This document shows positions 1 through 52,650 of a stretch of DNA of 64,000 nucleotides, piece by piece. Origin of the DNA: an uncultured Verrucomicrobiae bacterium (GTDB taxonomy: Bacteria; Verrucomicrobiota; Verrucomicrobiia; Chthoniobacterales; JAFAMB01); NCBI GenBank assembly GCA_963762565.1, contig CAVXLD010000001.1:288001-352000 (forward strand), in the 5' to 3' direction. Below the pieces are notes generated by a model, which made no database searches, was not told the origin of the DNA, and was given only the letters and a program-made list of their open reading frames with translations. The translations under genes and the position numbers were made by a program. The stretch's first letter is position 1. Every line of letters begins with the position of its first letter.

Positions 1-677
1 TTGATTCTCCCAATTGTGAGCCCAACACGCTGGAGGCGGCTTCTGCATGTGAACGAGCTGGCGCTGATGGCATCACCATCCATTTGCGGGCGGATCGGCG
101 GCATATCCAAGATCAGGACGTGTTCCGGCTCAGAAACAGCATCATGACCAAGCTCAACTTGGAACTGGGTAATACATCTGAGATTCTTGAAACCGCCCTT
201 CAAGTCCTGCCGGACGAAGTTTGTCTGGTACCGGAGAACCGGCAGGAAGTCACTACTGAAGGCGGTCTCGACGTGGTCAAGAACGCGAAAACATTACGCA
301 AAACCATTGAGCGTTTACAGTCCGCCGGCATTCGGGTCAGCATGTTCATTGAGCCAATGGGAGAACAGATCGTGGCGGCAGCTGACCTTGGGGCTGAAGT
401 GGTCGAGCTCCACACCGGAGCCTATGCGAACGCCGTTCACGAATTTCGCGAAGATGAGCTCGAGCGACTACGAGCCGCCCAAAAATTGGCGGCTGAGAAA
501 AAGCTGATCGTTAACGCCGGTCACGGAATCAACTATGAAAATGTGCGCCCATTGCTGGGTATTGAAGGTTGGAACGAGTTTAATATCGGCCACTCAATTA
601 TTTCACGCGCGCTTTTCGTAGGTCTGGAAACCGCCGTCAGAGACATGGCCAGGCTCCTAAAGGAGCATGACCAATAG
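1..677 (+). CDS. pdxJ: Pyridoxine 5'-phosphate synthase (5'-partial, runs off window start)
   Basis: Frame is open from position 3; motifs GITIHLRADRRHIQD, LNLE, VCLVPE-x6-TTEGGLDV, VELHTG, NAGHG, EFNIGHSII. Confidence 0.96.
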   Translation, partial: DSPNCEPNTLEAASACERAGADGITIHLRADRRHIQDQDVFRLRNSIMTKLNLELGNTSEILETALQVLPDEVCLVPENRQEVTTEGGLDVVKNAKTLRKTIERLQSAGIRVSMFIEPMGEQIVAAADLGAEVVELHTGAYANAVHEFREDELERLRAAQKLAAEKKLIVNAGHGINYENVRPLLGIEGWNEFNIGHSIISRALFVGLETAVRDMARLLKEHDQ

Positions 678-759
678 CCGATAGCCGATAGCCAACAATA
701 ATCCATGACGTCTCGGAGCCAGTCGCTTTCAAGATTGGCTATTGGCTATGGGCTATTGG
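671..759. repeat. Inverted heptamer tandem-repeat cassette (AATAGCC/GATAGCC x3 ... GGCTATT x3)
   Basis: Left arm 671-695 ccaatagccgatagccgatagccaa; right arm 735-759 is its reverse complement at 23/25 nt. The left arm overlaps the pdxJ stop codon. Confidence 0.9.
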
Positions 760-764
760 TAATG

Positions 765-866
765 CCTGAATATCTCACACTCTCTCTCCCAGATGCGAAC
801 AGGGCGTTGCGTCCTCTAAACCCCAGTATTGACAATACCCAATTAAGAGAGTGTGAGATATTCAGG
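765..866. repeat. Perfect 21-bp inverted repeat with 60-bp core
   Basis: cctgaatatctcacactctct (765-785) / agagagtgtgagatattcagg (846-866); ends 2 nt before the acpS ATG. Confidence 0.9.
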
Positions 867-868
867 TC

Positions 869-1276
869 ATGGTGTTCGGTATCGGCATCGATGTTGTAGA
901 AAATGAGCGAATCTCGGATTCGATCCGACGCCACGGCCAGCGGTTTGTCGATCGTGTGTTTCACACTAGTGAAATCGACTACTGTCGTTCCATGAAAAAC
1001 CCGGCGCCTCATTTCGCGGCGAGATTTGCCGCCAAAGAGGCGGTCTCGAAGGCCTTTGGGACCGGCTTTTCCCAGGAAGTGAGCTGGCGTGATATCGAGA
1101 TCGGTCGCAAACCGAGTGGGGAACCGTTTGTGATCCTGCACGGAGGCGCTGCCGCTTTGGCTGATCGCCTTCGAATTCGCTCCATCCTCGTTAGTTTGAG
1201 TCACACGGAGAACTACGCGGTAGCGAATGCGCTGCTAATGACCGAAGAATCCGGACGAGAAGAAGATAAAACGTGA
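869..1276 (+). CDS. acpS: Holo-[acyl-carrier-protein] synthase
   Basis: GIGIDVVE, FAARFAAKEAVSKAFGTG, G-x-P, VSLSH motifs; follows pdxJ. Confidence 0.96.
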   Translation: MVFGIGIDVVENERISDSIRRHGQRFVDRVFHTSEIDYCRSMKNPAPHFAARFAAKEAVSKAFGTGFSQEVSWRDIEIGRKPSGEPFVILHGGAAALADRLRIRSILVSLSHTENYAVANALLMTEESGREEDKT

Positions 1277-1301
1277 ATGGGTTATGGCTGTCTTTCGTCC
1301 G

Positions 1302-1376
1302 AATGACAAATGACAAATCACAGATGACAAACAAGACAATCGACAATCTGTCATTTGTCATCTGTCATCTGTCATT
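1302..1376. repeat. Inverted heptamer tandem-repeat cassette (ATGACAA x4 ... TGTCATY x4)
   Basis: aatgacaaatgacaaatcacagatgacaa (1302-1330) facing tctgtcatttgtcatctgtcatctgtcatt (1347-1376). Confidence 0.9.
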
Positions 1377-1381
1377 GGGCT

Positions 1382-2113
1382 ATGGATGCCGACTACAAAG
1401 TTAAGATCGAAGTCTTCGAGGGACCGCTGGACCTGCTTCTCTACCTCATTAAGAAAGAAGAGGTCGACATCTACTCCGTATCGATCGAGCGCATCACGAA
1501 TCAATACCTGGAATACCTCAACACTTTCCGGATGCTGGATCTCGATATTGCCGGCGAGTTCGTAGTGATGGCTGCAAATCTAATCTACATCAAAAGCCGG
1601 AGCCTATTACCGGCCGATCAGCAAGCGGCGGACGAGGAAGCCGACGAAGAAGATCCTAGATGGGACCTCATCCGGCAATTGATCGAATATAAGAAATTCA
1701 AGGATGTCGCGCTTCATTTGCACCGGTGCGAAGTTCTCCAGGAAGGAATTATCCCGCGGGTCGCGGGAAAGCCGGCAGTGACTGACGCGGAAACGCTGCT
1801 GAAAGACGAAGTCGGGATTTTCGACCTGATCACCGCATTTCAGAAGGTTCTTAAGAGACTTGAAAACCGGCGAGAAGATCTGCGCGAGATTTTCGAAGAA
1901 AACTTCACCGTCTCCGAAAAAATCGATTATATCCTGGAAACCATTCTTTCCGGCGCAAGGGTCGCATTTTCCAGCCTTTTCGCGACGGCGGCTAGCCGTA
2001 CTGAAATTGTCGTAACTTTCCTCGCCCTGCTCGAATTGATCCGTTTAAAGCAACTTCGAGTGACCCAACAAGCGGCGTTTTCCGATATCGAGATCGAGCG
2101 TATTGGGGTGTAG
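1382..2113 (+). CDS. scpA: Segregation and condensation protein A (kleisin)
   Basis: FEGPLDLLLYLI, EFVVMAANLIYIKSRSLLP, IVVTFLALLELI. Start moved to ATG 1382 because the ORF-track extension is repeat-derived. Confidence 0.95.
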   Translation: MDADYKVKIEVFEGPLDLLLYLIKKEEVDIYSVSIERITNQYLEYLNTFRMLDLDIAGEFVVMAANLIYIKSRSLLPADQQAADEEADEEDPRWDLIRQLIEYKKFKDVALHLHRCEVLQEGIIPRVAGKPAVTDAETLLKDEVGIFDLITAFQKVLKRLENRREDLREIFEENFTVSEKIDYILETILSGARVAFSSLFATAASRTEIVVTFLALLELIRLKQLRVTQQAAFSDIEIERIGV

Positions 2114-2144
2114 CCTTCGTCGATATCGACGCGAGGCGATTGAT

Positions 2145-2428
2145 GCCGCGAAGCGGCTGTGTCCCGAAGGGACTCAATGGGAGGTAGCCAGGAGGGGCAC
2201 GGTGTGGCTCTATAGCAGTCGTTCTCGTCCTCGTCCTCGGAAGCGCGGCAGCCCCTTGGTTCCGTTAGGCCCTGCATCGGTCTCTCGGGAGTCGAAAGTC
2301 CAGAGGCTCCACGAACCCAGGCAGAAATCGCCCTCGAGGACGAGGACGACGACGAGGACGAGAACGATTACGATCGACCAGCGGCGCGTCCTCCTGGCGC
2401 TACCTTCATTCAGTCCCTCCGGGACACA
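2145..2428. repeat. Nested inverted-repeat cassette (outer GTCCCGAAGGGAC REP-like arms, inner CGAGGA/CGAGAA hexamer arms)
   Basis: Outer arms 2158-2195 / 2390-2428; inner arms 2217-2239 / 2335-2369; unique core of about 95 bp. Confidence 0.9.
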
Positions 2429-2497
2429 CGCTTCACCGCCTCCAGCGATGCGGGCTTTTCTCACGCGAAAACTGCGCTAATCTGGCAATTCCGGATC

Positions 2498-3247: not shown

Positions 3248-3248
3248 G

Positions 3249-4331: not shown

Positions 4332-4352
4332 GTCAGAAGTTGGGGGTTGCTG

Positions 4353-4525
4353 GTTACGAGTTACGGGTTACGGGTTACGAGTTACGAGTTGGGGGTTGTC
4401 AGTCGGATCGGCGAGCATCGCCGAGGACGGCAAACATATAAGTCCTATAGGTCATATAGGTCCTATTTAGGCCACCACCCAGCGGTCGCCTTACCTCAAA
4501 CCCGCAACGCGCCACACTCAAACTC
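4353..4525. repeat. Heptamer array GTTACGR x5 with internal TATAGGTCC nonamer array and degenerate inverted arm
   Basis: gttacga/gttacgg x5 at 4353-4387; tataagtcc-tataggtca-tataggtcc at 4437-4466; degenerate aacccgcaacgcg...aaactc arm near 4499-4525. Confidence 0.8.
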
Positions 4526-10278: not shown

Positions 10279-10640
10279 GGCGAATGGGCGCACCGGCGAA
10301 TGCGCGAATGGCGTTGGTGGGGCGAGGCTCCCGAACAGTCGAATGTCGTTTCGCAGGGTTATTGATCCTTAAGGTTTGGCCTGACCGCGCCGGTTGTAGC
10401 CGAGACGGGCGCCGAGCCAGTCCCAGGGCTCGACAAGACCGATGAGGTCGATTCTTTCCCAACCCGGGTTTCGGTGCGCTTTCGCCTGTTAACGGCACTA
10501 CAAACCTTGACCCGGCTCGGCGAGCGTGTTGGCCTAGCCCAGCCGGCGTCGCAAACACTCTCAATACTCCGCGAACTCCTTTAGGCCGTTCGGAGCTTCG
10601 CCCCACCAAAATTTTTCGCCCACTCGCCTATTCGCCCACA
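10279..10640. repeat. Nested cassette: octamer (GGCGAATG) arms outside REP-like GTGGGGCGAGGCTCC arms
   Basis: ttggtggggcgaggctcccgaac (10314-10336) / gttcggagcttcgccccaccaa (10588-10609), flanked by ggcgaatg-type and ttcgccca-type octamer runs; unique core of about 250 bp. Confidence 0.9.
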
Positions 10641-12418: not shown

Positions 12419-12430
12419 TGGGAGACCCGT

Positions 12431-12520
12431 CGGCGCAAAGGCGTGTGGGCATGTGGGCATGTGGCTTCGCGCCTCGCTTTCGCCGGTGCGCCGTTTCGCC
12501 CATTCGCCGTTTCGCCTCGT
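12431..12520. repeat. Octamer inverted-repeat cassette between convergent genes
   Basis: ggcgtgtgggcatgtgggcatgtgg facing ttcgccggtgcgccgtttcgcccattcgccgtttcgcc. Confidence 0.75.
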
Positions 12521-12541
12521 CACCGCACCCCTGGCGGCCTA

Positions 12542-13123
12542 CTACGGCAGCACTCGAACAAAGTCCTGGATCGGCCGTCGTTTCGGCGCCTCCGGGACTT
12601 GAGCCGGATAACCGAGATACAGGAATCCAACAAGCTGCTCACCGCGCTCGGATAGCTCTAACAAAGCCTCTGTCTCAGGCAAGCGGGTAACCCGCCCGGT
12701 ATTCCAATGGGTTCCAATTCCCTCACCCAAGGCCGCCAATTGCAGGTTCTGGATGGCGGCGCAGACCGCAGCCAGGTCTTCGACTTGTTGAGCTGGGTTA
12801 CTCGCAACGCGGCAGGTGACCGCCAATAACACAGGAGAGGCCATGACTTTCCGTCGAGCGTCGTTGTTCGCTTTGGCCACCACCGCTGGATCTTGACTAG
12901 ATGCCGTTTGGTTGGCCAATCCATCTGCCAACGCTTCTCGGCTCCGCGTTCCAATGATGGCAATGCGCCAGGGCTCAGTGAGACGATGATTAGGAGCCCA
13001 ACGCGCCGCATCCAGAATTCGCCAAAGCGTCTCTTCAGGGATCGGGTCAGAACGGAATTCCTTAATGGTCCGCCGGCTTTGAATGGCGGTGATTATCGCA
13101 GGGTCAGGAATGATTGAGTCCAT
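12542..13123 (-). CDS. Nitroreductase family protein (YdjA-like)
   Basis: IQSRRTIKEF, AARWAPNHRLTEPWR, AVCAAIQNLQLAA, GIGTHW, LVGFLYLGYP. Confidence 0.9.
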   Translation of the reverse strand: MDSIIPDPAIITAIQSRRTIKEFRSDPIPEETLWRILDAARWAPNHRLTEPWRIAIIGTRSREALADGLANQTASSQDPAVVAKANNDARRKVMASPVLLAVTCRVASNPAQQVEDLAAVCAAIQNLQLAALGEGIGTHWNTGRVTRLPETEALLELSERGEQLVGFLYLGYPAQVPEAPKRRPIQDFVRVLP

Positions 13124-13149: not shown

Positions 13150-13686
13150 TCGTACTCGTCCTCGTCTTTGGTGGGGCGAGGCTCCCGAATAGCCCGACGA
13201 ATGACCAAGGCGCAACGCACGAACGCCCAGATGAATGAGCAAGGCCAAAAGACGCGCCGAGCCGTGGCCAACGATAGAGCACGGCTCGGCGCGATTTAGG
13301 GCCTAACACCTGGTGCTGTTTTGCGTTACCAATCGCTTCGGTCAATCGCTGGGGTTTTCGGGAGGGTCCGTGGTCAAGACATAGGTAACAAATCATGGTC
13401 AAGACATGGGTAACAGGTACATACAAAAAATGACTGGGGTGACTCGGAGATCCGCCCAGCTGGCCGACGGAGGTCAGCTGATAAAAATCGCATGCCGATC
13501 GTTCGCGAGAATGGTCGCTTCTGCCCTCTCACACATTTCACCCTCAAAAAGGACAACCAGAGGGAACCATACATTTTTTGATTGCCCAAGAATAGGTATA
13601 TAAAAAGCACATTTTCTCGACAAAGTGATACCTATGTCTTGACCACGTTCAGGAGCCTCGCCCCACCAAAGTCGAGCACGAAAGAC
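13150..13686. repeat. Nested cassette: hexamer arms plus GTGGGGCGAGGCTCC REP-like arms enclosing an IS-end-like element
   Basis: tttggtggggcgaggctcccgaa (13167-13189) / ttcaggagcctcgccccaccaaa (13648-13670). Confidence 0.88.
13369..13647. mobile_element. Putative non-autonomous MITE/IS remnant with IS481-like end repeats
   Basis: 20-bp tggtcaagacatRggtaaca twice in tandem (13371-13390, 13396-13415) and once inverted (13626-13645); no transposase ORF. Confidence 0.55.
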
Positions 13687-15433: not shown

Positions 15434-15495
15434 CGAATAGGACCTATACGACCTATATGACATATAGGTCCCATCGGTCATATAAGTCCTATTCG
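15434..15495. repeat. Nonamer (GGACCTATA/TATAGGTCC) inverted array
   Basis: cgaataggacctatacgacctatatgac / atataggtcccatcggtcatataagtcctattcg; near-palindromic 62 bp. Confidence 0.85.
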
Positions 15496-16032: not shown

Positions 16033-16172
16033 CAATCGTTCTCCTCCTCGTCCTCGAGAACGCGGCTTTGTCGGAGAGCCGGCGAATACCTCGCCGGGCA
16101 ATTTCGGGGTTCATCACGGTCGGTGACCGCGCGACCCTTTCGAGGACGAGGGCGACGACGAGAACGAGTACG
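16033..16172. repeat. Hexamer (CGAGGA/CGAGAA) inverted-repeat cassette
   Basis: aatcgttctcctcctcgtcctcga ... tcgaggacgagggcgacgacgagaacgagtacg. Confidence 0.85.
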
Positions 16173-16770: not shown

Positions 16771-16972
16771 GGAGGGACGAAACGGCGAATGGGCGCACCG
16801 GCGAAAGGGCGAAAGGGCGAGCCGACGCATCGGCCAAATTTAGGCCAGAAGCTACCTTAGCAGCGAAGCCGCGCCTCATGAAAGCCTGGGCGAAACCCTA
16901 GGTAGGCACAAACACGGCGGCAAGCGCAGCTTCGCCCTTTCGCCGGCGCGCCCGCTCGCCGTTTCGCCCTCC
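16771..16972. repeat. Octamer (GGCGAAAS/GGCGAATG) inverted-repeat cassette between divergent genes
   Basis: ggagggacgaaacggcgaatgggcgcaccggcgaaagggcgaa / ttcgccctttcgccggcgcgcccgctcgccgtttcgccctcc. Confidence 0.9.
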
Positions 16973-19341: not shown

Positions 19342-19379
19342 GAGCTGTTACCTCCGTTGAGCGTCAAAAGCCAATTAAG

Positions 19380-19523
19380 ATCCGCAGATTTCACAGATTA
19401 CGCAGATTTCGGTTTTAGGCTTGGGCAACTCTTCAGATAAAAACCTATTTCTGGCTCGGTGGATTTTCGGAGCCCCACGGCAGCATCTGAACCCCAAATC
19501 GAAATCTGCGTAATCTGCGGATT
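19380..19523. repeat. Nonamer (CGCAGATTA) inverted-repeat cassette
   Basis: atccgcagatttcacagattacgcagatttcg ... cgaaatctgcgtaatctgcggat. Confidence 0.88.
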
Positions 19524-19543
19524 TTTCATCTTTTGAATCTGGG

Positions 19544-20968: not shown

Positions 20969-21194
20969 AAACAGTTTGTCCTATGGTGAACATGAAACTG
21001 GGGGTTAAAAAACGGGAGCTAGTCAGTCCCCCCGGCGAAGGAAAAAACCACCGTTACCCGACTGTATCACCAGGGTATCGATTGGCTACGCGTTTTGCAA
21101 TCGCGAATTTAGACCCCGAATGCCCGAAAATCTATAAGGGGCACGCAGTGGCGTAGAACGGCCCTTTCTGCAGACCACGCCAGCGGCGCTGCGA

Positions 21195-21258
21195 ACGGAT
21201 AGGACCTATGCGACCTATAGGACTTATAGGTGATATCTGTCCTATAGGTCCTATTTGT
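21195..21258. repeat. Nonamer (GGACCTATA/TATAGGTCC) inverted array
   Basis: ggataggacctatgcgacctataggacttatagg ... gtcctataggtcctattt. Confidence 0.85.
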
Positions 21259-21267
21259 TCGCAGGGT

Positions 21268-23206: not shown

Positions 23207-23418
23207 CTGGAGGGGAGCCGCTTTATAGGACGGCAGTTCTACTGGATGCTAGCAAGCGGCTCCCGCGAACGACCCAGCGTTACCCATCCTACCTGTCGGC
23301 CTGAACTAACACCTGCCCATTAGAAGAGCCCTGGGGAATATGGCGCGTGGAACCGTTCCCGGGAGCCGCTTGCTACCAAATTACAGAACTGCCATTCTAT
23401 AAAGCGGCTCCCCTCCAG
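23207..23418. repeat. Four-unit GGAGGGGAGCCGC inverted-repeat element with arms of about 66 bp
   Basis: ctggaggggagccgctttatag...tagcaagcggctcccgcgaacg / cgttcccgggagccgcttgcta...ctataaagcggctcccctccag. Confidence 0.92.
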
Positions 23419-24082: not shown

Positions 24083-24160
24083 AAGTAATCAGTAATCAGT
24101 GTATACAGTATCAGTATCCGAACTAGGCGACGCCCAGCGTCCACTGATTACTGATTTACT
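24083..24160. repeat. Heptamer (AATCAGT) inverted-repeat cassette
   Basis: agtaatcagtaatcagtgtatacagtatcagt ... actgattactgatttactg. Confidence 0.8.
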
Positions 24161-24228
24161 GCCTCGCTTGCGAGACCGTGGCGAGCAGAGGGTGACGGTC
24201 CGGATATGTCGCATGATTTGGCAGCGCT
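24161..24228. repeat. Dispersed repeat of about 65 bp matching 22352-22420
   Basis: Shared cgtggYgagcagaggKtgacggtccggatatgtcgcatgatttg downstream of the REP-like hairpin in both copies. Confidence 0.85.
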
Positions 24229-24387: not shown

Positions 24388-24556
24388 TGTGAGAGGTGAG
24401 AAGTGAGACGCGAGCAGTGAGAGGCGCCTTGGGACGGCAGAGGTTGGGAGCTAAGGGATTTTGAGAACCAGAGAGGCTTATCGTCCGCGACTTCACTCCG
24501 GCCACTGGCGTCCAAGCACCCTTCACCATTCACTTCTCACATCTCACTTCTCACGT
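24388..24556. repeat. Heptamer (GTGAGAR) inverted-repeat cassette
   Basis: gtgagaggtgagaagtgagacgcgagcagtgagag ... ttcacttctcacatctcacttctcac. Confidence 0.88.
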
Positions 24557-24578
24557 AGGAGCGAGCGGGCCAGCAGAA

Positions 24579-24788
24579 GGAGCTAGGAGCTAGAATCTAG
24601 GAGCTAGGAGAGTGCGCAGCGGCAGGTGCTCGTTCTCGTCGTCGTTCCTCCTCCTCGATTCTAGGCGTGTGGAGAATCCTGGAACGCAAACCTTACGTCA
24701 AAAACCGTGGGCTAAAACCGAGCTGCAGAATCAAAGTCGAGGACGATTACCGTCGAGCTGGTGCGCCTCTCCTAGCTCCTAGCTCCTC
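24579..24788. repeat. Nested cassette: heptamer (GGAGCTA) outer arms, hexamer inner arms
   Basis: ggagctaggagctagaatctaggagctaggagagtgcgca / tgcgcctctcctagctcctagctcct; inner ctcgttctcgtcgtcg...gtcgaggacgatt. Confidence 0.88.
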
Positions 24789-25586: not shown

Positions 25587-25755
25587 ACCACGAATGGGCA
25601 CGAATTGATACGAATAAAAAAGAACAACCGCAGATGTACGCAGATTAAGCCCGGCAAAATCGTGGGCTGAGTTTCTCCCTAGGAAATCATCTGCGTAAAT
25701 CTGCGTTCATCTGCGGTTAAGTTCTTCGCCTTACATTCTTGTCGATTCGCGGTTC
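25587..25755. repeat. Nested 9/10-mer cassette (CACGAAT outer, AACCGCAGAT inner)
   Basis: accacgaatgggcacgaattgatacgaat-aaccgcagatgtacgcagatt ... atctgcgtaaatctgcgttcatctgcggtt-...gattcgcggtt. Confidence 0.85.
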
Positions 25756-25766: not shown

Positions 25767-26339
25767 TCATTGGTAGGTCGGCTGGGAACCGCCCCTGGGC
25801 CACCCTTGGAACATCTGGCGATCGCGAATGAAAAAAGGAGACCAAATCGGATCCGGATTCGGCGCGATCAACTCAGCCCGCTTCAGCACGAATTCTGAGC
25901 AGAACCGGCCGGCGGAGGCATCATAAATTTGATCTCCTGAAAAATAGCCGTAAAGCCGGTATTCACTTCCGTTGTCGGACCCGATCTGACTGCGAACGCG
26001 ATCAGGTGCGAATTGAAATTTTTCGTTCAGGATAACGAGCTTGGCTGTCTTCCAGTTCTGCCGTGGCGAACGGACGTATCCCCAGATAGCGAAAGGCGGA
26101 GAATAAACTCGCCGTCCGATATAGAAATCCCCAACTGGTTCAGCGGCAATCTGTTGAGCGATAGCGGCAGACTGCAAGAATGGCGAAGCTTGGGGAGTAT
26201 TAGTCGCGCATCCGGCCAGGAGGAGGAAGAGCGAAACGGCGTATGGGCGTGTCGGCGTATCGGCGTATCGGCGTAGGAACGTGCGCAGGCCGTGGAGCGT
26301 GCCTCGCTTGCGAGGCCGTGGCAAGCAAGGAGGAATCAC
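25767..26339 (-). CDS. Hypothetical lipoprotein (start uncertain)
   Basis: Lipobox LLLAGC followed by a compact domain (FYIGRR, WGYVRSP, YRLYGYFSGD, EFVL); the N-terminus runs through repeat DNA. Confidence 0.7.
   Translation of the reverse strand: MIPPCLPRPRKRGTLHGLRTFLRRYADTPTRPYAVSLFLLLAGCATNTPQASPFLQSAAIAQQIAAEPVGDFYIGRRVYSPPFAIWGYVRSPRQNWKTAKLVILNEKFQFAPDRVRSQIGSDNGSEYRLYGYFSGDQIYDASAGRFCSEFVLKRAELIAPNPDPIWSPFFIRDRQMFQGWPRGGSQPTYQ
26233..26330. repeat. Octamer array (GGCGTATC x5) plus GTGGAGCG REP-like unit
   Basis: ggcgtatgggcgtgtcggcgtatcggcgtatcggcgtagg then ccgtggagcgtgcctcgcttgcgaggccgtgg. Confidence 0.85.
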
Positions 26340-27144: not shown

Positions 27145-27400
27145 CGGTAGGGCCAGGCTCCGGGACGGCCGAGAGAAGTCCAACAAAGCGACTCGGTTTC
27201 ATTACAGACGCTGCACGCAGCCCCGACTCGCTGCCGAGCCGATTCCAGCGTCTGGTACTGTCGAGCACGGGGTAAACCCTGGGTCCGGCTCGGCGGCTTT
27301 TTCGACTACTACTACCCTTGGTCTGGGCAAGCGAAGCCGCGTTGCGAAATTTTGACGGCCTTTCCGGAGCCTCGCCCCACCAACTTTTCGCCGTTTCGCC
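27145..27400. repeat. GTRGGGCGAGGCTCC REP-like doublet between convergent genes
   Basis: ggtagggccaggctccgg (about 27146-27163) / ccggagcctcgccccacc (about 27364-27381), followed by ttcgccgtttcgcc octamers. Confidence 0.8.
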
Positions 27401-28174: not shown

Positions 28175-28276
28175 TGCCACGGTACTTACACGCTCGACGT
28201 TCGTGGTCAAAGAGGTGCGCACCAGAGCAATGGCTCGGTTCTCGCACCTGAGATGACGCTGGGAGGGTAGCCCGGA

Positions 28277-28425
28277 TATGACTTATATGACTTATACAAC
28301 TTATAAGCATATACGTCCTATAGGTCATATAAGTCCTATTCGGGCGCCTGTCCTTCCGCACCTTTCTAACACTGACGCGGCACCTCCTTCGCCCTTTCGC
28401 CGATACGCCCATCCGCCCCACGCCC
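28277..28425. repeat. Nonamer inverted array plus octamer run
   Basis: tatgacttatatgacttatacaacttataag/catatacgtcctataggtcatataagtcctat (28277-28340); ttcgccctttcgccgatacgcccatccgcccc abutting the DeoR stop. Confidence 0.85.
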
Positions 28426-29214
28426 CTACGCCACCACAACCTGCACGCCGGCCTCTTTCAGCGCTGCCGCCAGCTCCTCCGACGGCTCAGCGTCGGTCAC
28501 CAGAATTTGCATCGCGCTCAGCCCGGCAATCTGGGCAAACGAGTGTTTGCCCAACTTGGATGAATCCGCCAGAACGATCGTGCGCTGGGCAGCGCCCATC
28601 ATGGCAGCGATCATGGACGCCTCTTCCAGGACGGTGGTGGTGAGCCCTTCCTGGGCGGTGATTCCGCCAACGCCGATTATAGCGGTATCAACGGAGATCT
28701 GGATTCCAGACGCCAACACCGGACCGATCGTTACCTGTGCCTCCGGCCGGAATTGGCCGCCCATGACGTATACGTCTCGGATCAGCTCGGTCGAGAGCAC
28801 ACCTGGTACGCTGAGATTGTTCGTCACCACCGTGAGATATTGCTGGTTTAGCTCCGCCGCGAACAACCGCGTGGTGGACCCACCATTGATTAAGAGGGTC
28901 TCGCCGTCGCTAATCAGAGCCGCCGCCGCCTTAGCGATCCGTTGCTTTTCCGGCGTGCGAGTATTCAGCCTCTGCAGGAACGGCGAATCCCGATGAACCA
29001 AGGTTGTGATGGTTACAGCGCCGCCGTGAGTTCGGGTTAATGCTCCTTTTTCCGCCAATGCGTCCAGGTCGCGCCGGACCGTGTCCTCCGAGACATTAAA
29101 GTATTCCGAAATATCGGCGACGGACATCTGGCCCTTTATTTCGAGAAGCTTCAACACCTCGTTTTGACGTTGCGCCGGTAATGCGGGTTTCCGCGGCAAA
29201 TCGACCTCATCCAT
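28426..29214 (-). CDS. DeoR/GlpR-family transcriptional regulator
   Basis: RQNEVL...FNVSEDTVRRDLDALAEKGALTRTHGGA HTH; EKQRIAKAAAALI, GGSTT, TNNL, LADSSKLG, ILVTD. Confidence 0.95.
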   Translation of the reverse strand: MDEVDLPRKPALPAQRQNEVLKLLEIKGQMSVADISEYFNVSEDTVRRDLDALAEKGALTRTHGGAVTITTLVHRDSPFLQRLNTRTPEKQRIAKAAAALISDGETLLINGGSTTRLFAAELNQQYLTVVTNNLSVPGVLSTELIRDVYVMGGQFRPEAQVTIGPVLASGIQISVDTAIIGVGGITAQEGLTTTVLEEASMIAAMMGAAQRTIVLADSSKLGKHSFAQIAGLSAMQILVTDAEPSEELAAALKEAGVQVVVA

Positions 29215-30707: not shown

Positions 30708-31019
30708 TGGTAGGGCGAGGCTCCGGAAAGACCTCATCACTTCTGAATGGCGATGGCTTTGAACCAGAATCCGATCTCCCGCCTCGATGCGCCGCTGAGC
30801 CGCATGGCCCAGGACCTGGAGGGGAGCCGCTTTGTAAGTCGGCAGCTCTGCAGGTCGTCAGCGGCTCCGAGAAGGCCCAGCGGTGTGCAGTTCTATGGGA
30901 GTCGTCTGGACCGATCGCGCTTGAACGGAGCCGTTGGGTGAAAGTATCACGCTGGGTTATTCCGGGAGCCGTGCTGCCAACCGATAGACGGCAAAGCGGC
31001 TCCCCTCCAGGCGCTGGGC
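30708..31019. repeat. GTAGGGCGAGGCTCC half-site plus four-unit GGAGGGGAGCCGC element inside the ABC operon
   Basis: ttggtagggcgaggctccgga at 30708; cctggaggggagccgcttt (30815) ... aaagcggctcccctccagg (31011), with internal gcggctcc/ggagccg units. Confidence 0.9.
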
Positions 31020-34115: not shown

Positions 34116-34273
34116 AGATCCGCAGATTACGCAGATTACACAGATTTCGTCTTACGGCTGGCTCGGGCACAGGAACAACAGGCGCACTGGGCGGTCCACG
34201 ACGGCCCCTTTAGCTCAGCCGCACTGTTCAATCTCGAATCGTAATCTGCGTAATCTGTGTAATCTGCGGATTT
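34116..34273. repeat. Nonamer (CGCAGATTA x3) inverted-repeat cassette
   Basis: atccgcagattacgcagattacacagatttcg ... cgtaatctgcgtaatctgtgtaatctgcggat. Confidence 0.92.
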
Positions 34274-37122: not shown

Positions 37123-37265
37123 GAATTTCTCACAGAAGATCACAAAGGACGCAAAGATGGTTTTTAAACAGAAGAAAACCAAGGCAGCAAAGTTCAGCCT
37201 GGATGATCAGCGAAAAAACGATGCATCTATCTTCGTGACCTTTGTGACCTTCTGTTCAAAATTCC
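37123..37265. repeat. Nonamer (CACAAAGGT-like) inverted-repeat cassette filling a divergent intergenic gap
   Basis: gaatttctcacagaagatcacaaaggacgcaaagat / atcttcgtgacctttgtgaccttctgttcaaaattc. Confidence 0.88.
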
Positions 37266-38563: not shown

Positions 38564-38879
38564 CGGGGAGGGCGCGCTGCCTGTCCGCCATAGCTTTAGC
38601 GACGGAGGATCCCCGCGCGCCGCGAGGACGTGTCAGGACCTAAAGATGCACTTTCGTCCTCGATTACGACTCGCGCTCGGCTTCGTTAATAAAGGATCGC
38701 GAGGACGCGATCCCTCCCGGGAGATGGGCGTGCACTCAATCCAAAGACGAAGCGCCTCAGGGAGCATCCTGAACCGGTAATTCCGACTTGGCGCATTAGT
38801 CGAGCACTCCGCGTGGCCGGCTTCGAGCACGAGCACGAAACGCCGAACGCCGAACGCCGAACGCCAAACGCCAAACGCC
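38564..38879. repeat. Composite repeat region: GGGAGGGCGCG/CGCGATCCCTCCC arms with inserted palindrome, then hexamer and heptamer (AACGCCR x6) runs
   Basis: cgctgcctgtccgccatagc (38575-38594) is the exact reverse complement of 26597-26616; aacgccg/aacgcca x6 at 38838-38879. Confidence 0.85.
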
Positions 38880-40277: not shown

Positions 40278-40316
40278 AATCGAGGACGAGGACGACGACG
40301 AGAACGAGAACGATTA
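40278..40316. repeat. Hexamer run (CGAGGA/CGACGA/CGAGAA)
   Basis: aatcgaggacgaggacgacgacgagaacgagaacgatt; same family as 2335-2369; only a degenerate partner arm near 40135-40152. Confidence 0.8.
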
Positions 40317-41823: not shown

Positions 41824-41987
41824 GTTTTTGTTCCCGCCACTTCATTTAGAAAACGACGGTCTCACTCGGTACAGATGGAAATCACCGGGTAAGTTTCAGA
41901 AAAGATGGGAATGAAGTCCTCAGGAAGAGGAATCTCAGGCTAAGCAGACTTCGTCAGGCAAGCCGCCGGAAATCCGCGGGGGCGGAG

Positions 41988-42173
41988 CCGTGGAGCGCGC
42001 CTCGCTTGCGAGGCCGTGGTGAGCAAGGCTAAGGATAGGGCAGACTCACCGCTATGCCGCGCTCTTGAGCTTGAAGAAACACAGGCCCTAACATAGAGCG
42101 CTGACAGAACTTAGGTGTGCACCGCGATGTTCCCTTGCGTACCACGGCCTCGCAAGCGAGGCACGCTCCACGG
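41988..42173. repeat. GTGGAGCG REP-like doublet (REPIN-like)
   Basis: gccgtggagcgcgcctcgcttgcgaggccgtggt / accacggcctcgcaagcgaggcacgctccacggc. Confidence 0.92.
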
Positions 42174-42266
42174 CTGCGCCTCTCACTAGTCACCTCCGCC
42201 CCAAGAGCCCAGCCTACTGCGTCCTGCTTTATTGACAGCAATATCCTACAATACTACATCTCTAGT

Positions 42267-42485
42267 ATGAAAGTGACCGTCGAAGTGTCGGAAGAGGAGC
42301 TTAAGGATATCCTAAAAGCAACCCGCGAAAAAAGGAAAGGCGCCGCGATTCGCCAACTGGCATTAGAAGCCCTGATGCTCAAGAAACGACGAGAACTGCT
42401 CGACGAGGTCGAGGCCGGTAAATGGAGCGTTGATCTTCCACCCATCGAACGGTTGCGAGAAGACCGAAATTTATGGCGGTCATAA
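42267..42485 (+). CDS. VapB-like antitoxin
   Basis: 72 aa, RHH-like start MKVTVEV; overlaps the downstream PIN gene; TTGACA at 42232. Confidence 0.8.
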   Translation: MKVTVEVSEEELKDILKATREKRKGAAIRQLALEALMLKKRRELLDEVEAGKWSVDLPPIERLREDRNLWRS

Positions 42486-42877
42486 TCGACTCCTCGGTTT
42501 GGGTCGACTGCGTTAGAACGGGTAGTCCGGAGCCCCTAAGGAGGCAAACCAAAGCGATCATCATGGGGCCGGACAGTTTCCTGTGTGAACCGGTCTTGTT
42601 CGAATTGTTGCGGGCTGTGCCCAAGCGGAATCGGGCGCGCACGGAGGCCTTGGTAGCCACCGTTCCGATATTATCGACCCCCGCCGATCTCTGGATCTCT
42701 GCGCGGATCCTTGGTCAGAAGTGTATCGATGCCGGTTCGCTACCGCCGGCGATTGATCTCTTGATTGCGCAAATCGGATTGCATCATAACGTGCCAATCA
42801 CGACGTTTGACAGTCACTTTCAACAGATCGCTAAAGTCAGCTCGCTCCAGGTCAATTTTTTGATGCGCGCGAAGTAA
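42473..42877 (+). CDS. PIN-domain VapC-like toxin
   Basis: VIIDSSVW, FELL, IDLLIA, TFDSHF acidic PIN motifs. Confidence 0.9.
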   Translation: MAVIIDSSVWVDCVRTGSPEPLRRQTKAIIMGPDSFLCEPVLFELLRAVPKRNRARTEALVATVPILSTPADLWISARILGQKCIDAGSLPPAIDLLIAQIGLHHNVPITTFDSHFQQIAKVSSLQVNFLMRAK

Positions 42878-46524: not shown

Positions 46525-46733
46525 CCGCAGATTAACGCGGATAGACCCTTGGAGGACGTGCCATCGTTCTCGCAGTAAATCGTTCTCGTCCTCGTCGTCG
46601 TCCTCGATATTAACCGCGCAGCTCCCGGCAGCTGGAAACCAAAAACCGAGTCGATCAGAGCCCAGTCCGAATTTTCCGGGAGCACACATCACAGGTATAA
46701 CGGCGCCACCTATGAAGGACGACGACGAGGACG
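46523..46733. repeat. AACCGCAGAT arm plus hexamer inverted cassette
   Basis: aaccgcagattaacgcggat overlapping the stop codon; aatcgttctcgtcctcgtcgtcgtcctcga ... aggacgacgacgaggacg. Confidence 0.8.
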
Positions 46734-47820: not shown

Positions 47821-48207
47821 TCACCATAGCAGCTTTACTTTGTAGCGACGAAACACCGGATCGGGAGTGACGATTCTGAGATCATGAACCGCTGATTGCG
47901 CTAGTAGCAAACGATCAAATGGATCTTTGTGATACACCGGTAGATCTGATGTGCGGTGAATGGTTTCAAGATCAATCGGCCAATCCGTTACTTGGCGCGC
48001 AGAGAGCTGTTGAGCGATCCACGAGCGCGGTTTCTCTGGCAGAACAAGCTTCCCCGCCAGGGATTTCATATGGATCTCCCAGGCGCTCGCGTGGCTCAAG
48101 AATAATTCAGAACTCACATCCGATAGCGCTTTACGCGCTCGAGTACTCAATTTATCGGGATCGGCAGCCAGCCAGATGAAGGTACAAGTATCTAGCAGAA
48201 GTCGCAT
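47821..48207 (-). CDS. PIN-domain VapC toxin
   Basis: LLLDTCTFIW, SAWEI, HKDPFDRLLLAQS, VTPD. Confidence 0.93.
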   Translation of the reverse strand: MRLLLDTCTFIWLAADPDKLSTRARKALSDVSSELFLSHASAWEIHMKSLAGKLVLPEKPRSWIAQQLSARQVTDWPIDLETIHRTSDLPVYHKDPFDRLLLAQSAVHDLRIVTPDPVFRRYKVKLLW

Positions 48208-48447
48208 TCACACGCCCCACTCTCGCAATTCTTCATCAGTCAAAGGCGCGAAACAATCGTCCGAGTAATGGACCGGTTTCGACGTGATAATGCCGGCAGT
48301 TGGCCGTTTTTTATCATTTCGCTGCAGGCCGACCAAGCGAGCAACCGGTTCCTTATCCCGGTACAACACAACTTCCTTACCCGATTCCACTTCTGTAATC
48401 AGCTTTGAAAGGTGCGTTTTGGCTTCATGGATCGTGGCTTTGATCAC
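48208..48447 (-). CDS. Phd/YefM family antitoxin
   Basis: TIHEAKTHLSKLI-x2-VESGKEVVL-x5-PVARLV; directly abuts the toxin gene. Confidence 0.93.
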   Translation of the reverse strand: MIKATIHEAKTHLSKLITEVESGKEVVLYRDKEPVARLVGLQRNDKKRPTAGIITSKPVHYSDDCFAPLTDEELREWGV

Positions 48448-49259: not shown

Positions 49260-49272
49260 TTTCACTTGCTTT

Positions 49273-50167: not shown

Positions 50168-50208
50168 AAGCTCACGCTCTGCGAATTATTACTCGAATTC
50201 TTTTCGCC

Positions 50209-51318
50209 ATGACTAAGCCAAAAATCCTTGTCACCGGTGCAACCGGAAAAACCGGCGGCGCCGTTGTCAGTCAACTGCTGGCCAGCGGTTGGCCAGTACG
50301 AGCCATCGTCCGCGTGCGAGACGCACGTAGCGAGCGGTTGCAGCGCCGCGGCGCGGAGATCGTCGTTGCCGACATTTTCGATCCCGGTCAGCTGATGGAT
50401 GCCATGCGCGGTGCGCAGCGAGCCTACTATTGTCCGCCTTATCATCCCTTCGTGATCCAGAGTGCGTCAGCATTTGCGGCCGCCGCGCGAGAGACGGGCC
50501 TCGAACAGATTGTCGGGCTTTCGCAATGGCTCGCTGGACCCAATCACCCGGCACTAATGTCACGTCAGCTTTGGCTGATCGACCGCATGTTCGGGGCGCT
50601 TCCGGGCATCGCTCACACCGTTGTAAATCCCGGCTTCTTCGCGGACAGCCCGTATCTGGAAATGATGCCGTTCGCAGCCCAGCTCGGAGTGTTGCCGTTG
50701 CCAGGCGCTGCGGAAAGCCGCAACGCCCCGCCCTCGGTCGACGATATTGCCCGCGTTGTGGTCGCTACGCTCCTCGATCCAGCCCGTCATGCCGGGAAGA
50801 GCTACCGCCCGACCGGGCCGAAATTGCTCACCGGTACCGAAATGGCCACGGTCATCGGCCGCGTTGTGGGCCACAAAGTTCGACACGTGAGGACGCCGCT
50901 CTGGATGTTCTACAAAGGGGCCAAGGCACTAGGCATGCAGCCAATCCTGCTCAGCGGCTTGCGGTATTGGCTCCAAGACAATGACCGTGGCGCGTTTGCC
51001 GTCGGCGCACCTAACGATACGGTACGCGAGCTCACCGGCAAGGAAGCCGAAGACTTCGAAACCATCGCCAGGCGCCACGCCGCATTGCCAGCATCACGTC
51101 AGAGCTTCAGCGCGCGGCTCGCCGCCTGGGCGCGCTTCATGGCACTGCCGACGATGCCTGGGTTTAATCCCGGAGCCTACGATCGGGCGCAAGAACACCC
51201 CGTACCGCCCACGCCCCATCTTGCGCTCGACGATACCGACTGGCGAGCGAGCCATCGCACCGAGAGTTCGATCGCCGGAATCATTGGGGGCGAGCTTCAG
51301 GCGAGCGCACATGGCTAG
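50209..51318 (+). CDS. NmrA family NAD(P)-binding protein
   Basis: ILVTGATGKTGG, VRAIVR, SVDDIARV, HAGKSYRPTGP. Confidence 0.9.
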   Translation: MTKPKILVTGATGKTGGAVVSQLLASGWPVRAIVRVRDARSERLQRRGAEIVVADIFDPGQLMDAMRGAQRAYYCPPYHPFVIQSASAFAAAARETGLEQIVGLSQWLAGPNHPALMSRQLWLIDRMFGALPGIAHTVVNPGFFADSPYLEMMPFAAQLGVLPLPGAAESRNAPPSVDDIARVVVATLLDPARHAGKSYRPTGPKLLTGTEMATVIGRVVGHKVRHVRTPLWMFYKGAKALGMQPILLSGLRYWLQDNDRGAFAVGAPNDTVRELTGKEAEDFETIARRHAALPASRQSFSARLAAWARFMALPTMPGFNPGAYDRAQEHPVPPTPHLALDDTDWRASHRTESSIAGIIGGELQASAHG

Positions 51319-51508
51319 AGCAACTGTCCCAGCCAGAGAGATACAGGTCGTGCCGCCGGCAAAACCCGTCATCTGCCCGGACGGAGGCAAACCCTGAACT
51401 CATTGCCGTGAGACCGGCATATTTGCTCTCGATCACGGAAGGATCGTTTTCGAAATGCAGGCAGTCGCGACAAGCCGGTCCGGGTTGAGGGGAAAAGAAT
51501 CGATTCAT
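51281..51508 (-). CDS. Small Cys-rich protein (CxxC...C...C)
   Basis: CRDCLHF ... DGFCRRH ... CSSH; starts 5 nt after the YeiH-like stop. Confidence 0.65.
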   Translation of the reverse strand: MNRFFSPQPGPACRDCLHFENDPSVIESKYAGLTAMSSGFASVRADDGFCRRHDLYLSGWDSCSSHVRSPEARPQ

Positions 51509-51512
51509 GAAA

Positions 51513-51896
51513 TCAGTGGGTCACGGTCGTTGACCAGTATTTACCGAAGATCAACACCGAGAGGATGAATCCGAGGATGATGTTAACGATGGCTCCTGCG
51601 GCAAAGGCCAGGAAAGGCTTGCTGCCGGCGGAGACAAAATCCTTCACGCGTGTGGTAAGACCGATGCTCAGGAAACTGAAGGTAAAGGCCCAGGTACGCA
51701 ACGCCGTAATCGGCGCGATGAGGCCTGGTTTCACCAGTTTATTGTAGTCGCCCAGGGTATAGGCATGCACGATCAGGGTAGTAAGCAAAGAAGCGATCAA
51801 AAATCCGATGACAAATTTCGGGAAACGCCACCAGATCTGCCCCGCTTGAACCTTGCCTCCAGCCTCTTGTTTCTCCCATCGGGTCACTGCGATCAA
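51513..51896 (-). pseudogene. C-terminal fragment of YeiH/putative sulfate exporter family transporter
   Basis: IWWRFPKFVIGF, LRTWAFTFSFLSIGLTT, GSKPFLAF; only about 127 aa remain. Confidence 0.75.
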
Positions 51897-52213
51897 AGCC
51901 CCGGCTTATTGTGCAGAAGCACGAGATCGAACGGCTCCGGAGAGTTGGAAACGATAGTGTGTATGGTATCCATCCAGAGGTCGCTAGACCGGAAATCAGG
52001 GACCTTGTAGCCAAACGCGCGTAGAAATTCATAGGCGTATTGTTGGCAGTTTGCACCACCTGCCAGACCCCGAACGCCGGGAGCTCCCGGGTAACGCTCA
52101 TAATTATAACGGACTTTATGGAACCACTCTGGAATTCTGATCGGCGATTTAGACAAGTCTAATCGGGCGTCTACCATCTGCGAAGACTTTATCTCCTCCA
52201 GAGCAAATGTCAT
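51893..52213 (-). pseudogene. N-terminal fragment of an NlpC/P60-like protein
   Basis: GANCQQYAY (catalytic-Cys-like), SSDLW, EPFDLVL; ends where the His-bearing half would be expected. Confidence 0.55.
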
Positions 52214-52294
52214 CGCCTCGAAGATTGCCGCTCGGGCGCTCGCACCGTTAACTTAGCAGACTATCGAAGAACGGTTTCGACGGGCCGGGCGTTA

Positions 52295-52650
52295 GCCGCG
52301 AAGCGGCGACTCATGATAGCCTAGTGTGCTGTCCCGGAGGGACAAGGTAATAGCAGCCTGGCCTGGAGGGGAGCCGCTTTGGAACGAGCCTAAAGTTCTC
52401 GTGATATTCTATCCATTGCGAGGAACGCCAAATAGGGTGTTAAACAGGCGGCTCCCGGGAATTACCGCACGCAATGTTTTGTCCATAGTTCCGTTCGGAG
52501 ATTGTTCATCCGGGCCTCGTGCCAACAAACCTAACACGCGTTGAAACGTTCCCGGGAGCCGCCTGTTTAAGGAGATTTCCGCTCATGAACCCGTCCAGGC
52601 AAATATCGCGGGGTCTTCTGTTACGTGCCAAAGCGGCTCCCCTCCAGGCC
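52295..52650. repeat. GCCGCGAAGCGGC / GTCCCGGAGGGAC REP-like arm plus four-unit GGAGGGGAGCCGC element
   Basis: 52295-52360 resembles 2145-2192; ggcctggaggggagccgctttgg (52360) ... ccaaagcggctcccctccaggcc (52650). Confidence 0.9.

Follow-up and report, generated by a model that had tools for sequence, protein, structure and literature searches.

Intergenic hairpin cassettes in a Verrucomicrobiae genome: probably a layered population of REPINs and tandem-word elements associated with IVP and GxxExxY genes

The intergenic gaps of a 64,000-nt stretch of DNA from an uncultured Verrucomicrobiae bacterium (the window; positions 288001–352000 of contig C1 of genome G000) were found to be rich in cassettes in which two inverted arms enclose a core. 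We consider it probable that two kinds of hairpin-forming selfish elements, most of them without a gene, make up these cassettes and are arranged in layers. The first kind consists of REPINs, which are inverted doublets of repetitive extragenic palindromes (REP). The arms of the second kind are tandem copies of a short word, and genes of the IVP or GxxExxY family recur between such arms; these word cassettes were read as extragenic, mostly gene-less relatives of the 23S rRNA intervening sequences that carry an open reading frame (ORF). The genome comprises 6.12 Mb in 15 contigs of up to 1.5 Mb, with a G+C content of 54% and a completeness of 94%. The nearest named relatives of its IlvD protein were from soil Verrucomicrobiota/Chthoniobacterales metagenome-assembled genomes (93%, 86% and 81% amino-acid identity). 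Positions outside the window are given below as contig:position.

With arms of at least 16 nt, at least 80% complementarity and a spacer of at most 700, the inverted-repeat finder returned 47 pairs in the window, compared with 1–5 in ten first-order Markov shuffles, which indicated that the cassette layout noticed in an earlier, sequence-only reading was real. Most of these pairs (39 of 47) were located in the 13,356 non-coding bases and only 8 in the 50,644 coding bases, and 20 of the 46 gaps of at least 40 nt held an inverted repeat. The six gaps of this size beyond 52,716, in the last 11 kb of the window, held none. Looser settings gave 90 inverted pairs, and Tandem Repeats Finder (TRF) gave 58 rows with units of 6–21 nt, nearly all in gaps. 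Each of the 23 cassettes tested folded into a closed hairpin whose outermost pair lay at the cassette ends, with z from −3.3 to −13.4 (60 dinucleotide shuffles each). About 30 cassettes had been proposed, in agreement with the 29 places listed below if half-cassettes and single arrays are included. The word classes named at that time were also present, namely the 6-mer CGAGGA/TCGTCC, many 7-mers, the 8-mers GGCGAAWG and CGGCGTAT, and the 9/10-mers TATAGGTCC, CGCAGATTA and CACAAAGG. Nearly every arm in the window had tens to hundreds of family members in the genome, equally many on either strand, so the classes are indeed dispersed families.

In the whole genome, 4,442 tandem arrays were found, and arrays of the same unit formed at least 555 inverted pairs as against 58 direct ones, in 104 unit classes and with a median spacer of 108 nt. 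Based on our own crude gene calls, 1,362 of 3,646 gaps held an inverted repeat, and cassettes were present in 47% of convergent, 35–37% of co-directional and 32% of divergent gaps, i.e., in every gene orientation, as had been noted for the window. The stems of 27–65 nt and the presence of cassettes in 32% of divergent gaps do not fit an interpretation as terminators alone.

The REP-like palindromes REP1 (GGTGGGGCGAGGCTCC), REP2 (GGAGGGGAGCCGC), REP3, the GTCCCGAAGGGAC type and REP4 are REPINs, inverted doublets with a conserved body. Within 1 mismatch, the genome contained 511 matches to REP1, 425 to REP2 and 112 to REP3, and copies in the window were located at 10314, 13172, 27146, 23207, 30807 and 52358. 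The doublets were strongly handed (major:minor orientation of 195:4, 176:1 and 46:0 for REP1, REP2 and REP3, respectively), and their cores nearly always matched another core of the same class (154/160, 161/161 and 41/41). The claim that each cassette has a unique core therefore holds for the word-armed classes and fails for the REP-like palindromes with their conserved bodies. Compensated arm variants exceeded all 500 shuffles for REP1–3, which fits copying of the doublet as a unit.

Candidate partner genes of the REPINs were found elsewhere in the genome, each flanked by its own REP-like class, as had been anticipated. On the NCBIfam model REP_Tyr_transpos (cut-off 80) for REP-associated tyrosine transposases (RAYTs), C1:579808–580269 scored 89 bits and C10:17375–17980 scored 83 bits, and they were flanked by REP2 and REP1, respectively; C7:542286–542645, flanked by REP3, scored 69 bits and was thus below the cut-off. 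Three IS200-type Y1 genes (C7:408676, C3:712440 and C3:55401) were located between GTCCCGWAGGGAC hairpins, the type that forms the outer layer of window cassette 2158–2428. A 348-aa Y1-domain gene at C1:531665 was followed by tandem units of REP4, the class of window 41981–42180. Genes of 344–348 aa with an N-terminal Y1-transposase domain, below the RAYT cut-off, were observed at C1:531665, C5:482168, C12:564444 and C3:501538. As the earlier reading had stated, the window itself holds no partner gene: Y1 transposase, IVP and PD-(D/E)XK families were absent from its 56 larger ORFs.

In Pseudomonas fluorescens SBW25, three REPIN groups each lie beside their own single-copy RAYT (Bertels and Rainey, 2011, PMC3116915). 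According to the parts of that article covered here, the present genome resembles P. fluorescens in having several REP classes, inverted hairpin doublets and classes beside their own RAYT. REP1, REP2 and REP3 fit this published pattern, and the REP-like part of the cassettes is an already described system. Compared with what those parts of the article report, the REPINs here are longer, with bodies of ∼180–230 nt, and lie inside tandem-word shells, each class with a preferred shell. Because of the association found here and the published REPIN–RAYT systems, we infer that a dedicated REP-associated tyrosine (Y1) transposase copies each REPIN class, its gene being present once elsewhere in the genome between copies of that REP.

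The word cassettes were associated with two other gene families. Between same-class arms 350–3000 nt apart, 33 stretches with 46 genes were found, and 17 small genes from them were submitted to Pfam together with 3 Y1 genes found separately. The families that recurred between arms were 23S_rRNA_IVP (PF05635 = TIGR02436, a four-helix bundle) and PDDEXK_3 (PF13366 = TIGR04256, GxxExxY). All 11 GxxExxY genes of the genome were bracketed by an inverted repeat made of 9–10-nt words, e.g. CGCAGATTA, GATCACAAAG, CGCGAATGGA and GCAAAGGAC. Four of the seven IVP genes lay in an inverted repeat with a score of at least 16 and a fifth lay in visible AGTAAGC arms with a score of 13, which gave five of seven in word arms, with a different 7–8-nt word in each case (AGTAAGC, GTGAGAA, GGTGATT, AATAGCC and GGAGTGRT). 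By comparison, only 6 of 300 random genes of 300–600 nt were bracketed. The prediction that four-helix-bundle IVP genes and GxxExxY nuclease genes would be found inside such arms was thus borne out, with 7–8-mers around the former and 9–10-mers around the latter.

A similar association was observed in 30 relatives, of which 25 carried IVP genes and 20 carried GxxExxY genes. A score of at least 16 was reached by 18 of 27 IVP loci and 18 of 28 GxxExxY loci. The TRF periods were 7 (13 loci), 8 (4) and 10 (1) for IVP, and 9 (4), 10 (2), 8 (2) and 6 (1) for GxxExxY. IVPs in AGGAGCT/AGGAGYC arms from four genomes shared 67–91% mutual identity, and those in arms of the 8-mer GGCGNNNC shared 60–79%. 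IVP similarity thus follows the arm word, which indicates co-inheritance of gene and arms and not recognition, since kin share labels. Presence or absence of an ORF-bearing IVP element was also looked for in four genomes of the same genus, but the flanks of this element (locus L144) are themselves repeats, and no clean orthologous site was found.

No cassette in the window holds an IVP gene. Some of them share arms with gene-bearing copies: the arms of 34118–34271 and 19377–19525 recur at C1:643905–644434, and those of 37123–37264 at C7:548278–548949. Among 489 word-cassette cores in the genome, 4 were full genes, and 3 of the 485 ORF-less ones retained a 19–47-aa IVP or GxxExxY remnant, the arms of the corresponding gene being of a like word (0/489 in the control). 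These observations suggest that full-length word cassettes carry an IVP gene in 7–8-nt-word arms or a GxxExxY PD-(D/E)XK gene in 9–10-nt-word arms; the window holds ORF-less copies only. The arms may be recognition sites of the cognate protein, and would hence be kept while the cores drift. By analogy with rRNA intervening sequences, the ∼30-bp stem might be cut in transcripts by RNase III, a gene for which is present in the genome; such cutting would make insertions between the genes of an operon tolerable. Of the proposal that each class is served in trans by its own enzyme, the association of classes with protein families was supported. The associated families are those named beforehand, but AGGAGCT, AATGACA, CGAGGA and TATAGGTCC have no resident partner, and no partner gene for CGAGGA/TCGTCC, TATAGGTCC, GTTACGA or AATGACA was among the genes bracketed by same-class arms in the 33 stretches.

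In the gap between the convergent genes ilvD and nitroR of the related genome G004 (L092:4027–5292), two-layer 10-mer arms like those of G002 were observed around a 1.1-kb insert, one strand of which contains two open pieces (150 and 158 aa); the inner right arm was missing.

Three kinds of known elements resemble the word cassettes in part. The 23S intervening sequence of Coxiella burnetii comprises a 28-bp terminal stem that RNase III cleaves, a decaying ORF for an S23p four-helix bundle, and tandem GACAGAT heptamers, three in number but variable from strain to strain; ORF-bearing 23S intervening sequences are also reported from Leptospira and Salmonella (Warrier et al., 2016, PMC4990558). 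As far as the sections of that article covered here show, the likeness extends to the terminal inverted-repeat stem of ∼28 bp around an IVP ORF and to the tandem heptamers, and GACAGAT is a rotation of the word GATGACA found here. The differences from the intervening sequences described in those sections are that the word cassettes lie between protein genes and not in rRNA, and thus lack one defining feature, that a genome has hundreds of them, spread over about 100 word classes and for the most part without an ORF, and that some carry a GxxExxY gene instead of an IVP gene. In Xanthomonas, paired GGGAATC arrays form 70–75 convergent (inverted) pairs per genome, and heptamer repeats also occur in Nostoc and Calothrix; between species, the type of repeat is usually preserved but varies in length (Rehm et al., 2015, PMC4692102). 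In contrast to the present genome, the passages of that article covered here describe one G-rich unit per genome, read by its authors as a quadruplex former, and mention neither an associated gene family nor nesting or multiple classes. Literature on word-armed IVP or GxxExxY cassettes outside rRNA was not found in the sources searched, which did not include subscription journals.

The word cassettes differ from REPINs in having neither a conserved body nor a RAYT partner. They can also be compared with MITEs (miniature inverted-repeat transposable elements) such as Correia and RUP, which are small gene-less elements with terminal inverted repeats, some of them internal deletions of a gene-bearing element. 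MITE copies share internal sequence and derive from DDE transposons with target-site duplications. Like MITEs, three ORF-less word cassettes keep a gene remnant. Unlike MITEs, word cassettes share the arms alone: only 3 of 34 AATGACA cores, 0 of 16 AATAGCA cores and 7 of 27 CGCAGATTA cores matched another core of the same class, and no duplication was seen at the one site viewed.

The arms themselves were highly stereotyped. Across classes, the orientation X...rc(X) was observed 286 times and rc(X)...X 3 times, and exact arm consensus sequences gave forward-then-reverse to reverse-then-forward ratios of 35:2, 45:1, 17:2, 27:0, 162:2, 162:0 and 42:0. The 33-nt arm AGGAGCT AGGAGCT AGAATCT AGGAGCT AGGAG was present in 140 copies within 3 mismatches, and its reversed pattern gave no match. 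In five other species of the genus the same arm was found in 119, 51, 44, 24 and 2 copies, as against 0–5 copies in 25 genomes outside the genus. The median arm length was 27–31 nt at word periods of 6–10, each arm being built of 2–5 words, and the number of words per arm decreased from 4.5 for 6-mers and 4.4 for 7-mers to 3.8 for 8-mers, 2.9 for 9-mers and 2.7 for 10-mers, so it seems to be the length of the stem, and not the count of words, that follows a rule. A correspondence between five words and the pentameric IVP ring was considered but rejected, since it is the arm length and not the word number that is constant. Local origin of the arrays by replication slippage and compensatory change, with nothing copied between loci, would account for the variable unit numbers, for the frequent difference in unit number between the two arms of a cassette, and for G002 L091:15135–15471, where the right arm has 11 TTGGCTA units as against ∼4 in the left arm, a rare one-sided expansion. 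Nevertheless, we regard it as very improbable, because the same arms occur at tens to hundreds of loci, their handedness is 286:3 with no match to the reversed pattern, and they bracket specific gene families.

The two kinds of elements were layered in one direction only, with words outside REPs in 44 cases and the reverse in none. Tandem arrays were found on the outer side of 135 of 511 REP1, 50 of 425 REP2 and 35 of 112 REP3 arms, and on the inner side of only 9, 7 and 2. The five nestings cited in the earlier reading (2158–2428, 10279–10640, 13150–13686, 24578–24787 and 25587–25755) were all real, but its description of the classes as unrelated does not hold, since the shell of each REPIN class is preferentially made of one word class: GGGCGAAW 8-mers made up 26 of the 35 arrays outside REP3, GGTGATT was enriched outside REP1 (34 of 135 arrays), and TCGTCC arrays were located ∼45 nt outside 69 of 425 REP2 arms, as against 14 of 510 for REP1, 0 of 112 for REP3 and 22 of 2000 random segments. 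At two syntenic gaps, ACT>ilvD and nitroR<MFS, the shell was common to three species and the inner element was different or absent. At 10279–10640, the outer 8-mer arms were common to G002 and G004, and the inner element was REP1 in G004 and REP3 in G002. A common shell with a differing inner element fits younger REPINs landing in older shells. The suggestion that elements insert into existing hairpins is likewise consistent with these two gaps and with the one-sided nesting, and we propose that nesting may come about when REPINs enter word cassettes already in place, with one favoured word class per REPIN class.

Words that adjoin a REP are similar to its outer end, with GGGCGAAW passing without a break into REP3 (GGGCGAAAA) and GGTGATT into REP1 (TTGGTGGGG). 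We read this resemblance as target choice of an IS200-like enzyme. The words could also be by-products of REPIN/RAYT activity, either as a stuttered REP outer end or as a preferred target, in which IVP and GxxExxY elements merely settle. This resemblance and the class-specific pairing of shell and REPIN would be expected then, yet we find such an origin quite improbable: most word cassettes have no REP (e.g. AATGACA cassettes with cores of 14–40 nt), IVP clades follow arm words across genera, all 11 GxxExxY genes have word arms and no REP, TCGTCC is unlike the REP2 end and lies ∼45 nt away, and the Coxiella intervening sequence, in the parts of its description covered, has heptamers without any REPIN (PMC4990558).

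The 29 places in the window are as follows.

665..765, heptamer cassette ATAGCCG/GGCTATT with arms 665–695 and 735–765 and a 39-nt core; z −8.8; 44 + 60 arm copies; kept in G002 with a diverged core; AATAGCC arms also surround IVP gene C1:1345239.
765..866, hairpin confined to this locus, immediately upstream of acpS, with perfect arms of 21 nt; not a dispersed repeat, with only 2 + 2 copies in the genome; conserved in G002, in contrast to the repeats around it; possibly a genuine regulatory or terminator structure.
1296..1380, heptamer cassette AATGACA/GATGACA with a 14–22-nt core; found by repeat finding and fold; an AGTAATC cassette is here in G002.
2158..2428, nested, with outer GTCCCGAAGGGAC-type REP arms 2158–2179 and 2407–2428 and inner TCGTCC/CGAGGA arms 2209–2239 and 2347–2377; z −9.4.
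4344..4466, GTTACGA heptamer array 4344–4397 and TATAGGTCC 9-mer palindromic array 4435–4466; no partner gene found for either class.
10279..10640, nested, with outer GGCGAATG 8-mer arms and an inner REP1 doublet (TTGGTGGGGCGAGGCTCC); repeat finding and fold.
12440..12516, imperfect 8-mer cassette GGCATGTG/TTTCGCCG downstream of ilvD; tandem repeats; another class is at this site in L001, L003, G002 and G004.
13150..13686, three layers, namely TCGTCC/CGAGCA arms, a REP1 doublet (13156–13189 and 13648–13681) and an inner 22-nt inverted repeat (13369–13390 and 13626–13647); z −11.2; the body recurs elsewhere in the genome, and G002 and G004 keep the 6-mer shell only.
15434..15495, ATAGGACCT 9-mer palindrome with no core; repeat finding, fold and copy count.
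16036..16167, 6-mer cassette TCGTYC/CGAGGA; repeat finding and fold; nothing comparable in the G002 gap.
16773..16970, 8-mer cassette GGCGAAAS/TTCGCCC with 39-nt arms; z −8.4.
19377..19525, 9-mer cassette CGCAGATTW; its arms are of the GxxExxY-element type and match those of GxxExxY gene C1:643950–644342.
21189..21264, ATAGGACCT 9-mer palindrome with no core; repeat finding, fold and copy count.
23207..23418, REP2-family REPIN (GGAGGGGAGCCGC) with 65-nt arms; z −13.4; 134 + 122 copies.
24084..24161, heptamer cassette AGTAATC; an IVP gene lies in related arms in G012 (L148).
24389..24554, heptamer cassette GTGAGAA; IVP gene C11:105914–106399 lies in GTGAGAA arms.
24578..24787, 33-nt AGGAGCT...AGAATCT arm outside a TCGTCG/CGAGGA layer; IVP genes lie in AGGAGCT/AGGAGYC arms in G004, G005, G014 and G015.
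25587..25755, nested 10-mers, CACGAATNNN outside CGCAGATKWA; GxxExxY genes C1:1444995 and C1:643950 carry these arms, and the two-layer arm is also downstream of ilvD in L001, G002 and G004.
26237..26325, single CGGCGTAT 8-mer array with one REP4 hairpin unit after it; tandem repeats.
27146..27381, REP1-like doublet; repeat finding, fold and copy count.
28270..28437, ATATGACTT/TATAAGTCC 9-mer palindrome 28270–28345 and single CGCCCATA 8-mer array 28390–28437; z −12.2.
30807..31019, REP2-family REPIN; RAYT gene C1:579808–580269 is flanked by REP2.
34118..34271, 9-mer cassette CGCAGATTA with 32-nt arms and a 90-nt core; arms nearly those of the GxxExxY element C1:643905–644434.
37123..37264, 9/10-mer cassette GATCACAAAGG; the arms also bracket GxxExxY genes C7:548354 and C7:520842.
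38824..38879, single arrays CGAGCA and AACGCCG (half cassette); tandem repeats.
40281..40313, single CGAGGA array of the right-arm type; tandem repeats.
41981..42180, REP4 doublet (CCTCGCTTGCGAGG hairpin and GCGCTCCAC) with 48-nt arms; z −12.6; 132 + 156 copies.
46587..46733, 6-mer cassette TCGTCC/CGAGGA; repeat finding, fold and copy count.
52358..52652, REP2-family REPIN with 51-nt outer arms and inner 22-nt perfect arms 52440–52461 and 52549–52570; z −12.4.

The TATAGGTCC-type 9-mers at 4435–4466, 15434–15495, 21189–21264 and 28270–28345 were near-perfect palindromes with 0–4 nt between the arms and a nearly self-complementary unit, and no partner gene was found for them. The 56 larger ORFs of the window were ordinary chromosomal genes (pdxJ, acpS, scpAB, pheA, gltB, ilvD, transporters and regulators). 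Rfam at gathering scores gave no family in the window, and the tRNA/tmRNA scan was likewise empty. Two PIN-domain genes, at 42117–42877 and 47821–48447, each had a small ORF upstream and resemble toxin–antitoxin pairs. The cassette-free part at 52717–64000 had a G+C content of 52–53%, compared with 54–59% before it, and carried genes for an extracytoplasmic function (ECF) sigma factor, a hybrid kinase and a KaiC-like ATPase; it may differ in origin or age.

The cassettes were found to turn over between species. Identity at four-fold degenerate sites was 52–62% in comparisons of this genome with its sisters, which makes neutral DNA impossible to align. At eleven syntenic gaps, the same class was kept at 3, and a different class, or presence versus absence, was observed at 7; the eleventh was a cassette-free promoter gap which looked well conserved by eye in three genomes. 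An empty site was found between gltB and the ACT gene, which are separated by 3 nt here and by a 155–179-nt AATGACA cassette in two sisters, with no target-site duplication visible at this one site. In G002 (L091:9836–10092), the gltB stop codon lies inside the first AATGACA word of the cassette, and gltB of the present genome ends in GACAAATAG, which itself holds one AATGACA copy.

Replacements were also observed between strains. Contigs of two other studies (X5 and X7), with flanks ∼99% identical, carried 165 other letters in place of 1234–1381, 78 letters in place of 4480–4520 (41 nt) and 94 letters in place of 12419–12542. In one strain-level replacement, the right flank differed at 39 of 736 letters and the left flank at 2 of 320. 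Joints whose shorter side had fewer than 30 letters (695>735, 13189>13646, 2426>10313 and others) were set aside as possible repeat cross-matches, and among joints with sides of at least 30 letters in the contigs of other studies, no excision or insertion was assignable to a REPIN. The sequence-only reading would have been refuted by a lack of presence/absence or class switching at orthologous gaps and of any association with a protein family, but these comparisons showed the opposite: orthologous gaps show class switching as well as empty and filled sites, and protein families (RAYT/Y1, IVP and GxxExxY) are associated with classes. Its further concern was that nesting might be an assembly artefact. 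Repeats are hard to assemble and contigs of relatives often end in arms, as in G004; but the 15 contigs of the present assembly reach 1.5 Mb, layered cassettes of the same kinds also occur at syntenic gaps in genomes of the genus that were assembled independently, and contigs of three other studies cover parts of cassettes (e.g. 4354–4479), so the likelihood of an artefact is negligible.

The hairpins could instead be RNA or DNA signals selected by the host, such as bidirectional terminators, protectors of mRNA 3′ ends or RNase III 'punctuation', with the IVP, GxxExxY and RAYT genes as domesticated keepers or passengers. In line with this, five species of the genus have retained exactly this 33-nt AGGAGCT arm (24–140 copies; 2 in a sixth) at a four-fold identity of 52–68% between the bearing species, three of the eleven orthologous gaps keep their class, the arm length stays at ∼27–31 nt at any word period, convergent gaps are the richest (47%), and near-perfect arms surround unrelated cores. 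Nevertheless, cassettes also occupy 32% of divergent (promoter) gaps, one site lacks a cassette in one species but has one in two others, class swaps occur at 7 of 11 gaps and also between ∼99% identical strains, ∼100 interchangeable classes exceed the need of one function, arm co-variation is absent and the wobble bias weak, and the last 11 kb of the window is without cassettes. Host function was judged unlikely, though less so than slippage or a REPIN by-product.

Several observations weigh against the preferred explanation, that of a layered population of REPINs and IVP/GxxExxY word cassettes. An ORF remnant was retained in only 3 of the 485 ORF-less cores, and the abundant classes AGGAGCT, AATGACA, CGAGGA and TATAGGTCC lack a partner gene in a genome that is 94% complete. 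Spread of the word classes by simple copying from a master is contradicted by mostly unique cores within near-perfect arms: 18 of 34 AGGAGCT cores did match a same-class core, mostly via nested repeats, but of the 18 AGGAGCT cassettes with both arms at most 2 mismatches from the consensus, only 2 share a core. No co-variation between the two arms of a word cassette was detected beyond shuffled pairings. G·U wobble, as an indicator of selection on the sense RNA, gave a pooled 1,021 versus 928, a weak bias from repeats that are not independent ('++' gaps 454 versus 456; '--' gaps 567 versus 472). The 23S gene at C12:223485–226335 spans 2,851 nt for a 2,925-position model and has no intervening sequence. 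Contigs of metatranscriptome run X19 were located only inside genes and none crossed a cassette, so they were uninformative on transcription or cutting, and RNase III cutting at word cassettes would be an analogy with the rRNA elements. Neither insertion nor excision was observed for any class, nor was mobilisation in trans, and at least one of the strain-level replacements may be an import by homologous recombination.

The combination of near-perfect arms, unrelated cores and absent co-variation implies that the arms are held to the consensus one by one, and not by pairing or by recent copying of the whole element. Recognition by a protein, conversion between copies, or a host function would each have this effect. 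It is this maintenance of the arms around unrelated cores that limits confidence in the layered-population explanation and leaves host function some weight. A further, more speculative possibility, which we put forward only tentatively and consider doubtful, is that the IVP and GxxExxY proteins with their arms define an undescribed class of bacterial element. It would target hairpin loops and gene junctions without a Y1 or DDE transposase; its arms would be renewed or policed in trans by the cognate protein, an idea prompted by the near-perfect arms around unrelated cores and the arm length fixed at ∼30 bp; its hundreds of ORF-less copies would serve as RNase III punctuation of operon transcripts; and rRNA intervening sequences, like the heptamer repeats of Xanthomonas and cyanobacteria, would be faces of one system.

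Tandem heptamer repeats of bacteria have been known since 1990 and have lacked a mechanism, and the IVP and GxxExxY families are widespread but, to our knowledge, without a known function. Three loose ends thus meet in these cassettes, namely the bacterial heptamer repeats, the protein family of the 23S rRNA intervening sequences and the GxxExxY family. Word classes can be matched to candidate protein genes within one genome, several abundant classes being without one, and ORF-bearing and ORF-less copies are found side by side, with three REPIN–RAYT pairs as an internal comparison (the gene of REP3 being below the cut-off). The repeat families of the genome are not independent of each other, as each REPIN class lives in a particular shell, and this dependence bears on the build-up and turnover of intergenic DNA in large soil genomes.

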